Part shown: positions 40,458 through 43,250 of the stretch, in pieces
How the letters are laid out: each line of letters opens with the position of its first letter
How positions within the stretch are numbered: the first letter of the stretch is position 1
IMG/VR virus record: IMGVR_UViG_2874920711_000009
Location: 1-44,255 of that record
Strand: one strand, 5' to 3'
Origin: a virus
Lineage: Duplodnaviria > Heunggongvirae > Uroviricota > Caudoviricetes
Length of the DNA: 44,255 nt
Program-made: the position numbers and the translations under genes
The notes under the pieces: model-generated
Told to the model about the DNA's origin: nothing
What the model saw: only the letters and a program-made list of their open reading frames with translations
The model's database searches: none

Positions 40458-40538
40458 ACCTGCTTTTTGTCTGGTCTGATTATTGCTGGAAAGAGGCTGG
40501 AGAAATGTAAGCGCCCCGAGAAGTACGTAGCGTAAGGA

Positions 40539-42094
40539 TTATTTTACAGACGAGAAGTTCCAGGGCAGCAGTTCATGCACTTGGTTCGACGGCCAGTCAT
40601 TGAGCTTCTCGATCACTTCGCGCAACCAGTCCTCCGGCTCCACTTCGTTCTGTTTGCAGGTGACCAGCAGACTGTAGATGATCGCCGCACTTTCTCCTCC
40701 CTTGTCTGAGCCGAAAAAGAGATAATTTTTTCTTCCAACCGCCACCGATCGTAACGCGTTTTCACCGATGTTGTTGTCTATTTCCACCCAGCCGTCACGA
40801 CAGAACTCGTTCAGCGCATTCCAGTGATTCAGGATATAGTCGAACGCCTTCGCCATCTCCGCATATTTCGACAGCGTTTTCCTCTGCAACTGTATCCAGT
40901 CGTACAACGACTGCATCAACTGGACGCTTCTGGCTTTTCTGACTGCAAGCCGTTCCTCTGCCGGACTGCCACGTATCTCCGCTTCTATGTCGTATAACTC
41001 TGCTATCCGTCTGAGCGCTTCCTGAGTCATTTCTGTCGGACGGCGCACATCCTCGTCATGGATTTTTCGGCGGGCGTGGGCCAGGCACCCGGCTTCCTTC
41101 ACCCGGCCCGTTTCGTACAGTACGTTATAACCTGCATAGGCATCAGCCTGCAGTACGCCCTGATACTTTGCCAGGTGGAGCTGCGGATGTTCTCCTTTGC
41201 GATCTGCCGAATACGCGAACCAGACGGCTGCCGGCAGGGATGAACCCGCATTACGATCATCCCTGACGTATACCCACAGACGACCCGTTTTCGTCTTTCC
41301 GTTCCCCGGGGCCAGTACTTTCACCGGAGTGTCATCTGCGTGCACCTTTCCTGCCTCCAGAACATAGTCATTCAGCGCTATATACAGAGGACGGAGTTTG
41401 TCTGCCATTTCTGATACCCAGCGCACCATGGTATTACGGCTCAGCTCCACGCCCTGTCGCGCGTATATTTCTGACTGGCGATATAAAGGGATATGTTCCA
41501 TATATTTGCTGACCAGGATCCGTGCAAGTAACCCTGCACTGGCATAACCGCGTTCGATCGGTTTAGGGGGAAGTGGTGCCTGAACGATGACATCACACCG
41601 GCTACAGGCCAGTTTGGGACGTATGGTTTCGATAACTTTAAAGGCGGTATTAATGATATCCAGTTGCTCTGAGATTGTTTCCCCCATTTCTTTCAGAACA
41701 CCTCCACAGGCCGGGCAACTGGTTTCAGCAGGCAGAAGGCGATGTGTCTCCCGGGGATTCAGGCTTACTGGCGATCGGGTTTTCTGACGGGGACTGGTGT
41801 CAGGTGAATCTGTGACTGACGATGCATCTTCCAGAAGATTTCTGGCTGTGTTCAGCCGGTTTTCCAGTTCCGACAGTCGTTTTTCTGCCTGTCGGATCTG
41901 ATTTTCAAGCTTATGACGCTTTTTCTCTGAACTCTGGCCGAACAACATACGACGCAACCTGTCGAGTTGCGCTTTCAGCCGTTCAATTTCCTGCTCATAG
42001 CCCGCGACCTGACAGGCATACTGTCGAAGCCGACTCTGTTGCTTACGCAACATGGCTTTAAGCAGCTCAATATCATCGGGAGTTCATTGTTCAT
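40539..42094 (-). CDS. IS66-family transposase TnpC (504-aa ORF intact from 42053; first 14 codons out of frame at a C3 run)
   Basis: ORF track 40539..42053; copy A has CCCC where copy B has CCC at the N-terminus. Confidence 0.8.
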
Positions 42095-42113
42095 TCCCTT
42101 GTTTTATCACGGG

Positions 42114-42461
42114 TTATATCCGGATGCCAGGCCGTTCTGTCCGTTTGGGATGTTGCCACGCGATCCCCTCCAGTAGCATGGATAACTGAGCTGGCGTCAG
42201 GTGCACTTTCCCTTCCCGGGTCACCGGCCAGACGAAGCGGCCCCGTTCCAGGCGTTTGGCGAACAGGCATAACCCGTCACGATCGGCCCACAGTATTTTC
42301 ACCATTTTGCCACTGCGGCCCGGAAGACGAAGATATGCCCGGAGAACGGGTCATCTTTCAGCGTGTTCTGCACCTTCGAAGCCAGGCCATTGAAGCCACA
42401 ACGCATATCTGTGATGCCAGCGATGATCCAGATTCTGGTACCGGTCGGCAGCGTTATCATC
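42114..42461 (-). pseudogene. IS66-family TnpB, frame break as given
   Basis: 63-aa fragment 42114..42305; copy A has the intact 115-aa version. Confidence 0.7.
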
Positions 42462-43131
42462 GGATACCCCCTTTCATTTCGCGGATTAGCGCCCGTAACA
42501 GTTCCGGAGTGAGAGGGTCAAACAGTTTTACCACACCTGATTTAAGATGCAGCTCGCACCGTGGGACGTTTCCGGGAGCCCCCTCAGGGCGCTCATCATG
42601 CTTGTTACGCCAGAAGGGATTTGTAACTGGTCTGGTCGGCTCCGGCGTATCAGTCAGTGCCACCGGGACAGGCATGCATTCCTGTATGTCATCATCGCTC
42701 AGTAAGCCGTCCTCGTACTGGCTTTTCCATTTAAACAGCAGGTTATCATTGATATCGTGTTCTCTGGCGATCCGGGCAACAACAGCCCCAGGCTGTAACG
42801 CCTGCTTAGCCAGACGGACCTTAAATTCACGGCTATAGCTGGTTCGCCGTTCTTTTCGCCATGAGCCTTCTCTGATTTGAGGCTCTGTTAATTCCTTCTT
42901 TCTGTTGGCATAAAGGATGGCGTCAAGTTGAGCGAATGAAACTGAATCGGGCAATGGCCATGCGATACCGGATGCAAGAAATCGCTGAAAAAGCGTATGT
43001 ATTGTGGAATGACTGAGACCCAGACGCTGAGCGATGGCCCGGATGGTCAGTTTATCTTCAAATCTTAAACGCAGGGCATCAGGCAAATAAGAACGGAAGC
43101 AGGGAATATCTTTTGTTGTCTGGGAATTCAT
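42457..43131 (-). CDS. IS66-family TnpA-like protein
   Basis: 224-aa ORF ending just before tnpB start. Confidence 0.7.
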   Translation of the reverse strand: MNSQTTKDIPCFRSYLPDALRLRFEDKLTIRAIAQRLGLSHSTIHTLFQRFLASGIAWPLPDSVSFAQLDAILYANRKKELTEPQIREGSWRKERRTSYSREFKVRLAKQALQPGAVVARIAREHDINDNLLFKWKSQYEDGLLSDDDIQECMPVPVALTDTPEPTRPVTNPFWRNKHDERPEGAPGNVPRCELHLKSGVVKLFDPLTPELLRALIREMKGGIR

Positions 43132-43250
43132 CGTTCGTGTCCATCAATATAGATGGGCGCGATTGTTGCCAGACAGGACAATTTTCACAAGACGTCGCTG
43201 ATGGGGCGCTTACGGAGAAATTGTAGAGCGGTTCATTGGAGGGCTTCGTA

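Follow-up and report, generated by a model that had tools for sequence, protein, structure and literature searches.

An ISSfl3 insertion separates the repressor and integrase genes of a P88-like prophage in a Shigella lineage

Results

The repressor-integrase region and its host prophage

The sequence analysed here, referred to below as the window, is a stretch of 44,255 nt of viral DNA (IMG/VR record IMGVR_UViG_2874920711_000009). It is identical to CP026824.1, which is probably from Shigella dysenteriae. The regulatory region and the genes on either side of it comprise the following features.

39719-40005, minus strand: cox, encoding a Cox-like excisionase/repressor (match to PF10743, Phage_Cox)
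40080-40128: candidate C operator half-sites, the direct repeats TGCCCGATGTGGCAT and TGCCCGATATGGCAT, 31 nt apart from start to start and overlapping the early promoter
40105-40134, minus strand: Pe-like early promoter, TTGACA-18 nt-TGTCCT (TATCCT in relatives)
40119-40457, plus strand: immunity repressor gene C, 112 aa from the ATG at 40119 or 106 aa from the ATG at 40137
43238-43243, plus strand: Shine-Dalgarno sequence of int, GGAGGG, 7 nt before the ATG
43251-44255, plus strand: int, an intact tyrosine integrase gene of 334 aa (PF24624, PF00589; phrog_1)

The product of C matches the phrog_147 transcriptional regulators (E = 1.5e-29) and, weakly, HTH_3. The cox and C genes are arranged face to face, and int follows directly downstream of C on the same strand, as in phage P88_4B11 (Xuanwuvirus P884B11, NC_049391.1). 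The prophage is collinear with this phage over ~33 kb at 94-99% identity, and its Int protein is 100% identical to those of P88_4B11 and of the prophage in E. coli 14EC020. These comparisons identify the host element as a P88-like prophage (Peduoviridae, Xuanwuvirus, P2-type) lying next to pdxB in a Shigella lineage. P88_4B11 shares with the window its gene order, this identical integrase and the pdxB-proximal end, but differs in carrying no IS elements, a full replication gene of 940 codons, an intact Pe -10 hexamer and a TGA stop of C.

An insertion in the C-int spacer

The spacer between C and int is interrupted by an IS66-family element of 2,707 bp, the transposase genes of which are on the minus strand, antisense to both C and int.

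40499-40506: 8-bp target-site duplication, left copy, GGAGAAAT; the empty sites of P88_4B11 and of E. coli prophages have it only once
40507-43213, minus strand: ISSfl3 copy B (IS66 family), 2,707 bp as assembled
40507-40517: IRR, the tnpC end, GTAAGCGCCCC, adjoining gene C
43203-43213: IRL, the tnpA end, GGGGCGCTTAC on the plus strand, adjoining int
43214-43221: right copy of the 8-bp target-site duplication, GGAGAAAT

The terminal inverted repeats match perfectly over 11 of 11 bp, and beyond them identity is patchy. Terminal inverted repeats of the IS66 family start 5'-GTAA, and copy B has termini of this type (GTAAGCGCCCC) at both ends. An 8-bp target-site duplication is likewise typical of the family (PMC6778807, citing Machida 1984). 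The chance of an 8-mer match at a fixed position is ~1.5e-5.

To reconstruct the site before insertion, the left flank, one copy of GGAGAAAT and the right flank were joined into a sequence of 800 bp. This rebuilt empty site is found in 226 of 5,426 complete E. coli genomes as one ungapped piece with 99.8% identity, and is uninterrupted in the P2-like Xuanwuvirus P88_4B11 at 99.9% identity. The site thus records the transposition of a copy of ISSfl3 into the 78-96-nt spacer between C and int, with duplication of the octamer. The first-pass annotation had already described a clean IS66-family insertion between the two genes of a P2-type prophage, bounded by an 8-bp duplication. Its coordinates prove exact, and the family matches of TnpA, TnpB and TnpC, the identity to ISSfl3 and the single-copy empty sites of relatives all bear it out.

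The window was assembled from error-rich long reads and has many homopolymer errors (compared with P88_4B11, it lacks a single base at 30 places and has one too many at 3), and one may ask whether a repeat was simply misplaced there during assembly. However, the perfect duplication of an octamer that each of 226 relatives has only once is the signature of transposition, and the same junctions recur in independent assemblies and in short-read contigs that stop at the IS end, making an artefact of this kind practically inconceivable.

The junction between C and the IS is absent from all 5,426 complete E. coli genomes, and an exact-pattern scan for the left junction among species-representative genomes, where Shigella is probably present only as an E. 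coli genome, found none. Other strains of the Shigella lineage (CP027027.1, for example) carry the same C-IS-int insertion. Being common to several strains of one lineage, the insertion is an old lesion that has become fixed, and not a regulatory event of recent date. Rfam and tRNA scans gave no match within or beside it.

The insertion had been placed 41 bp after the C stop. This holds for the window, where the TAG is at 40455-40457, but not as a general spacing: in P88_4B11 and E. coli 14EC020 the stop lies 18 nt earlier, leaving 59 nt to the octamer. The shorter distance results from a lineage-specific change of the ancestral TGA at 40437 to GGA, which lengthens C by 6 residues. The suggestion that the ribosome-binding region of int was duplicated has to be abandoned, since the octamer sits 30-37 nt before the ATG, 17 nt ahead of the true Shine-Dalgarno sequence, and the latter occurs once and outside the duplication. 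The GGAGGG itself is present and intact, as had been noted, and int retains 37 nt of native leader beyond the IS.

Identity and coding capacity of the element

Copy B is 99.6-99.8% identical over its full length to elements annotated as ISSfl3, a name taken from the RefSeq label "IS66-like element ISSfl3 family transposase"; the family occurs mostly on Shigella plasmids. Profile matches show the family gene order tnpA, tnpB, tnpC on the minus strand.

42457-43131, minus strand: tnpA, 224 aa, intact and of reference length (NF038385, IS66_access_TnpA, E = 1.9e-85)
42114-42460, minus strand: tnpB, split into 53 + 63 aa (PF05717 matches both halves; NF033819)
40539-42094, minus strand: tnpC, the DDE transposase (PF03050, E = 1e-100; PF13005; PF13817; NF033517, E = 1e-135)
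41749-41757, minus strand: junction of a 44-bp deletion in tnpC, with one copy left of a 9-bp direct repeat, TCCCCGGGA on the IS strand

The split of tnpB is caused by a 1-nt deletion at ~42322 in a G run that is full length in copy A (a second ISSfl3 copy in the window), in the reference and in three sister assemblies, which indicates an assembly error. In tnpC, the leucine-zipper, zinc-finger and DDE domains are all matched (PF13007, PF13005, PF03050 and PF13817), and the gene combines a real 44-bp deletion with two 1-nt assembly errors. The 504-aa open reading frame at 40539-42053 is an artefact of this combination, and the corrected sequence encodes fragments of 123 and 429 aa. In the reference element, two copies of TCCCCGGGA flank the 44 bp. 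The deletion is found in all ISSfl3 copies of the lineage and in none of the best plasmid and E. coli matches, and its junction was not found by an exact-pattern scan of species-representative genomes, in which Shigella is probably represented only by an E. coli genome.

As the 44-bp deletion shifts the tnpC frame, copy B does not encode the intact transposase of an autonomous element. With its tnpC broken in this way, copy B was probably moved by the transposase of another copy, or received the deletion from copy A in a later gene conversion. Once three homopolymer under-calls are corrected against the 2,754-bp reference copy and sister assemblies, copy B measures ~2,710 bp. It thus resembles ISSfl3 in the order of tnpA (224 aa), tnpB (115 aa) and tnpC, in its GTAAGCGCCCC termini and in its 8-bp target duplication, and differs from the reference in length (2,710 versus 2,754 bp) and in having the 123-aa and 429-aa fragments in place of a 533-aa TnpC.

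We also considered whether the two copies carry complementary defects, with tnpB broken in B and tnpC in A. This was rejected as biology: A and B differ solely by seven deletions of 1 nt, each in a G/C run that has its full length in the reference as well as in three sister assemblies. The majority of frameshifts in the window are homopolymer sequencing errors. The apparent pseudogenes (tnpB, tnpA and tnpC fragments, cox, parA and several structural genes) for the most part reflect homopolymer under-calls in CP026824.1 and not biology.

Other lesions in the prophage

Two further IS elements are present in the prophage.

30097-32802, plus strand: ISSfl3 copy A, inverted relative to copy B
38163-39492, minus strand: IS2 in the early operon, with the 5-bp duplication GGTTG at 38158-38162 and 39493-39497

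Copy A has no target duplication, its flanks being TTTTTTCC and TTATCAGG. Beside it, 550 bp of phage DNA is missing, and the replication gene is cut to 763 of 940 codons. An apparent extension of the repeat past the IS ends had raised the idea that copies A and B used the same target octamer, which the differing flanks of copy A exclude. On the Agrobacterium plasmid pAt15955, mismatched 8-bp flanks around an IS66-family copy mark recombination or deletion (PMC6778807), and copy A, beside its 550-bp loss, looks similar. Copy B differs from that case in having matched flanks, and on this account has been spared any such event in this strain.

The early promoter is also altered. The Pe -10 hexamer has lost its A at position 2 through a substitution at 40109, and a promoter matching the consensus at 10 of 12 positions in P88_4B11 gives no match in the window; the change is common to all loci of the Shigella lineage. 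A frameshift in cox, by contrast, was rejected as a real lesion: the C run at 39981-39987 is C7 here and C8 in eight other lineage loci, which encode a Cox of 95 aa.

The inverted ISSfl3 pair

Copies A and B lie 7.7 kb apart in inverted orientation, and two identical inverted IS copies bracketing a segment are what would be expected of a composite transposon inserted as a unit. The bracketed DNA is, however, native to the prophage, and its alignment to P88_4B11 stays collinear to either side of each IS. Copy B is bounded by a perfect target duplication of its own, and the two outer flanks differ (TTTTTTCC and GGAGAAAT). Collinearity and outer flanks together refute a composite transposon, to which we attach hardly any probability.

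Another possibility is that the pair acts as a reversible cassette, with homologous recombination between the copies flipping the 7.7-kb immunity, early and replication module. Three assemblies (AMJQ01000141.1, AFFZ01000072.1 and AAMJ02000010.1) show the order par/IS/C...A/IS/int, with junction flanks exactly as expected from a crossover inside the IS, whereas the order is collinear in CP026824.1, CP027027.1 and UYIS01000011.1. The copies also seem to evolve in concert: in four assemblies, all the copies that were read (both, wherever both were readable) carry an 8-bp duplication in tnpA that the copies of the other two assemblies lack, and a T at reference position 2396 is present in both copies of the window. 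On the other hand, all three inverted cases are draft assemblies, and an identical 2.7-kb repeat is just where drafts mis-join. Short-read contigs of the lineage stop at the IS (L011, L018-L020), and UYIS01, a contig of 1.38 Mb from the sub-lineage with the 8-bp duplication, is collinear.

That both orientations are real among Shigella dysenteriae strains is therefore possible but doubtful; if they are, the promoters facing int and those facing the partition genes would differ between strains or subpopulations. It is less likely still, and in our view improbable, that copy B matters chiefly as the partner of copy A, with strains differing in whether int is faced by C or by the truncated replication gene, as the IS parts int from any promoter in both isomers even if the inversion is real. 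Within this window an inversion between A and B was rejected, all segments being collinear with P88_4B11 and the flanks of copy B matched.

Discussion

The consequences of the insertion depend on how int is expressed. In P2, the promoter Pc drives expression of both the repressor and the integrase as one "lysogenic operon" (PMC3936717, PMC1904263). The premise of the first-pass annotation that int is expressed with C in P2-type phages thus agrees with the literature, in which this co-transcription is documented for P2 and not for P88-like phages. The window shares with the P2-type operon cox and C genes that face each other, operator-like sites in the form of direct repeats, and an int gene that follows C and points toward the attachment site. 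The C repressors of P2 and WPhi have direct-repeat operators (PMC1904263), and we regard the repeats TGCCCGATGTGGCAT and TGCCCGATATGGCAT as candidate half-sites of this kind. The arrangement in the window differs from the P2-type operon in being split by 2.7 kb of antisense IS sequence, in the 6 additional residues of C and in the early promoter lacking a key -10 base.

If int of P2-type phages lacks a separate promoter and depends on transcription from Pc through C, the Pc transcript would now have to traverse 2.7 kb of IS sequence, antisense and untranslated, to get to int. The entry region of the IS is C-rich and G-poor on the plus strand (40607-41000), and the transcript would run against the transcription of the IS itself. 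Most Pc transcripts would then be expected to end inside the IS, and the supply of Int would fall as a result. It is reasonable to infer that int is no longer expressed from Pc, the polarity being drawn from the general behaviour of IS insertions in operons and not from ISSfl3 itself. The insertion spares C as well as the Shine-Dalgarno sequence and the reading frame of int. For the explanation as a whole, in which it nevertheless lowers Pc-driven int expression and helps to ground the prophage, we estimate a probability of about 0.8. Against this explanation counts the perfect conservation of Int, which fits continued use as well as young age.

Alternatively, the insertion may be neutral for int, with read-through from Pc or a weak outward or hybrid promoter at the tnpA end maintaining the Int supply and leaving excision essentially unchanged. 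The intact reading frame, Shine-Dalgarno sequence and native leader of int, and the identity of Int to that of a phage isolate, would all fit this, as would the lack of an above-chance intrinsic terminator on the plus strand within the IS, where the one terminator-like match (43035-43049) is no better than in shuffled sequence. Promoter and terminator consensus scans near the junctions found nothing above chance: there is no consensus promoter facing int at the IS-int junction, and none with even 8 of 12 matches at 42900-43260. In the C-int spacer of the uninterrupted relative, there is no terminator, no significant structure (z = -0.24) and no plus-strand consensus promoter, in a scan that also misses Pc. 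As Pc itself is missed in both the window and the intact relative, such scans would overlook weak promoters, one of which may serve int from within the IS end or the 37-nt retained leader. Against neutrality stand the missing int-facing promoter, the long, C-rich and opposed path that the Pc transcript would have to take, and the retention of the prophage through strain divergence, as expected if it is unable to leave. On balance we consider a neutral insertion unlikely.

Under the reading that we prefer, reduced Pc-driven int expression, the split operon would act together with the weakened early promoter, IS2 and the truncated replication gene to make the prophage a permanent, "grounded" resident that keeps its C immunity. 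The insertion thus probably figures among several lesions that hold the prophage in the chromosome. An effect on excision or integration control, which had been suggested for it earlier, is not specific to copy B, because the Pe -10 is mutated, IS2 interrupts the early operon and the replication gene is truncated.

The pattern resembles that of "grounded" or cryptic prophages disabled by IS elements (PMC6379469), in which recombination or excision functions and lytic genes are hit but immunity persists, and which are likewise retained from strain to strain. It differs in that int is intact here and only its transcriptional link is cut, and we infer the grounding. The jump of a known Shigella IS into a decaying P2-like prophage is an ordinary event and matters little beyond annotation. 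Nevertheless, the locus illustrates, for a Shigella lineage, the stepwise disabling of the P2-like prophage next to pdxB, whose repressor was kept, and it offers a clean, testable case of an intact integrase gene cut off from its promoter.

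Structure and age of the insertion between C and int

The window is collinear with the P2-like phage P88_4B11 (Xuanwuvirus, Peduoviridae; NC_049391.1) at 94–99% identity, from which three IS elements and a number of mosaic segments set it apart, and by its sequence we classify it as a P2-type prophage. The genes that concern us are the following.

cox, minus strand: Cox-like gene opposing C (PF10743)
C, plus strand: immunity repressor gene (phrog_147; weak HTH_3)
int, directly downstream of C: tyrosine integrase gene (PF24624 and PF00589), its protein matching P88_4B11 Int at 100% identity

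Between C and int lies copy B, an element of the IS66 family. When the interval 39800–44255 is read, the octamer GGAGAAAT is found twice, at 40499–40506 and 43214–43221, enclosing 2,707 bp that start with GTAAGCGCCCC and finish with its reverse complement. The C frame stops at TAG (40455–40457), with the first octamer 41 nt further on, and on the far side GGAGGG (43238–43243) is followed after 7 nt by the int ATG at 43251. The octamers, the C stop distance and GGAGGG were thus placed exactly by the first-pass annotation. Its proposal that the insertion duplicated the ribosome-binding region of int does not hold: the octamer, 30–37 nt upstream of the ATG, is not the ribosome-binding site of int, and the Shine-Dalgarno GGAGGG lies downstream of it, unaffected.

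The pre-insertion sequence was rebuilt from 400 bp on each side of the element, with one GGAGAAAT kept at the end of the left flank. Of 5,426 complete E. coli genomes, 226 contain this empty site as a single ungapped match (99.8% identity), and it is also present in P88_4B11 (99.9% identity). Because the octamer is single-copy in these matches, a chance repeat is ruled out: copy B arrived by transposition and duplicated 8 bp of its target.

The genes of copy B identify the element.

TnpA, minus strand: 224 aa (NF038385, E = 1.9e-85)
TnpB, minus strand: in two pieces (PF05717/NF033819)
TnpC, minus strand: PF13007, PF13005, PF03050 and PF13817 (NF033517, E = 1e-135)

Copy B is 99.6–99.8% identical to RefSeq-annotated copies of ISSfl3, and Shigella accounts for 88 of the 122 plasmid records with this element. 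Gene order, domains, GTAA termini and the 8-bp duplication are all those of the IS66 family; what it probably lacks is autonomy alone, since tnpC is broken. The intact reference ISSfl3 measures 2,754 bp and encodes TnpA, TnpB and TnpC of 224, 115 and 533 aa. Compared with it, both copy B and copy A, a second ISSfl3 in inverted orientation, lack 44 bp of tnpC, which in the reference are flanked by a 9-bp direct repeat, TCCCCGGGA.

An exact protein look-up led to CP026824.1, to which positions 34119–44255 are 100% identical and in which pdxB comes after int, the arrangement also seen in E. coli 14EC020. The same C/ISSfl3/int junctions occur in CP027027.1, and the C-side junction recurs in many short-read contigs that end at the IS end. 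As these junctions are shared, we consider the insertion to be old and fixed in this lineage of Shigella strains.

Downstream of int, over 190 nt or more, the P88_4B11 record (locus L001, 5431–5620) shows near-identity to host sequence comprising the int-pdxB spacer and the 5' end of pdxB (L001 versus L006/L007). Either host DNA forms part of the record, or the attachment site of the phage contains a copy of the pdxB 5' region.

Assembly errors and true lesions

No substitutions separate copies A and B, which differ only in single-base deletions, four of them in A and three in B; all seven lie in G or C runs.

42322, 42081 and 41793: under-called runs in copy B
30726, 30837, 31625 and 31998: under-called runs in copy A
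29053–30035: split parA, among the examples of G/C homopolymer under-calling
39981–39987: homopolymer run in cox, read as C7 in the window; eight other loci have C8

None of the seven runs is shortened in three further assemblies of the lineage, all of which carry the 44-bp tnpC deletion; against P88_4B11, the window has 30 single-base deletions and 3 insertions, almost all in G/C runs. Because the runs are full length in sister assemblies and the G/C deletion bias is window-wide, we attribute to assembly artefacts, in copy B, the split tnpB and the "in-frame" tnpC of 504 aa and, in copy A, the broken-up tnpA and tnpC. The frameshift in cox was likewise rejected as a real lesion, given the C8 run of the other loci. 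On these comparisons the window's apparent pseudogenes are mostly assembly errors, produced by systematic single-base under-calling of G/C homopolymers.

Once corrected, the element would be about 2,710 bp long, with tnpA and tnpB intact and tnpC broken into fragments of 123 aa and 429 aa. Since tnpC is broken in this way, the ISSfl3 copies here are probably non-autonomous; copy B probably arose through mobilisation in trans or by conversion from copy A.

Probable consequences for int expression

In an uninterrupted relative, a consensus promoter is lacking from the int strand of the C-int interval, and the spacer contains no terminator and no significant fold (z = -0.24), which is consistent with co-transcription of C and int. 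With copy B in place, a transcript from Pc, the P2-type promoter of C, would have to pass through 2.7 kb that is untranslated and antisense to the tnp genes, entering the IS through a C-rich, G-poor stretch (40607–41000). Such composition is of the kind associated with Rho loading. At the tnpA end of copy B and the int junction, no outward promoter reaches even 8 of 12 consensus positions, in scans that are crude and also missed Pc. Because the sequence to be crossed is antisense and untranslated, its entry is C-rich and no outward promoter was seen, a strong polar effect on int appears to be the most likely consequence, with a probability that we put at roughly 0.6–0.7.

Retention of the prophage across strains fits the concept of a "grounded" prophage (PMC6379469). 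Other lesions could account for this retention equally well.

Two arrangements of the segment between the ISSfl3 copies

As a known IS in a known kind of phage operon, the C/ISSfl3/int insertion is of a type already described and would not surprise a specialist; the genus Shigella is known for IS expansion and prophage decay. More useful are three by-products, the match to CP026824.1, the warning about homopolymer errors and a possible IS-mediated inversion.

The 7.7-kb segment between the inverted copies occurs in two arrangements among public assemblies of the lineage (compared over 30097–43213; loci L008, L010, L014, L015 and L017 versus L007, L009, L013 and L016). The order collinear with the phage, par/IS/A...C/IS/int, where A denotes the replication gene, is found in CP026824.1, CP027027.1 and UYIS01000011.1 (a 1.38-Mb contig), and the inverted order, par/IS/C...A/IS/int, in AMJQ01000141.1, AFFZ01000072.1 and AAMJ02000010.1. 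In the inverted assemblies the flanks at the junctions match precisely what a crossover between the two inverted copies would produce, and the inversion may be real. Alternatively, the inverted order could be a mis-join: all three cases come from draft assemblies, and drafts mis-join at identical repeats such as this one of 2.7 kb.

An 8-bp tandem duplication, CATACAGG, lies in tnpA at about IS position 525 (L008, L010, L014–L017). Four assemblies have it in all ISSfl3 copies read at the prophage, both of them where both are readable, and no copy of the other two assemblies has it; it is absent from the window copies and from L009. The two copies evolve in concert, and this distribution suggests gene conversion between them. 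The duplication may be an excision footprint, as 8 bp is the size of the IS66 target duplication.

Other lesions and features of the early region

30097–32802: copy A, inverted relative to copy B and 7.7 kb to its left
38163–39492: IS2 (1,330 bp in the assembly; 5-bp duplication GGTTG), in the early operon
40105–40134, minus strand: early promoter Pe, opposing Pc; -10 hexamer TGTCCT in all Shigella-lineage loci, the window included
35822–35909 / 35945–36019, minus strand: C4 antisense RNA (Rfam, 83 bits) and isrK Hfq-binding RNA (Rfam, 64 bits), early region

In P88_4B11 the early promoter reads TTGACA-18 nt-TATCCT (10 of 12 consensus positions); a substitution at 40109 has removed the conserved A of the -10 hexamer, a likely promoter-down change for the lytic promoter. 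Downstream of cox, IS2 separates two small genes of the early operon. The flanks of copy A (30089–30096 and 32803–32810) are unmatched, leaving no target duplication; beside it 550 bp of phage DNA (P88_4B11 34476–35025) are absent, and a TAA within the copy A terminus cuts the replication gene short after 763 of 940 codons. The TGA stop of C in relatives has become GGA at 40437, adding six residues (GGQKTG); 54 blocks of the public collection contain this longer protein.

Direct repeats TGCCCGATGTGGCAT and TGCCCGATATGGCAT, 31 nt apart, overlap Pe (40080–40128) and are candidate C operator half-sites, and AATGGCTCAA and AATGGCTTAT, 10 nt apart (40031–40050), may be Cox boxes. The C4 and isrK matches adjoin a gene with a "Derepression" Pfam domain, with which they form a possible antirepressor control module.

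Elsewhere, an IS009 RNA match (Rfam, 191 bits) lies on the minus strand at 11803–12001, in a segment not in P88_4B11, and a 132-bp unit occurs as three copies in tandem, at 79–82% identity, within a 663-aa ORF of the tail-fibre region (14376–14869).
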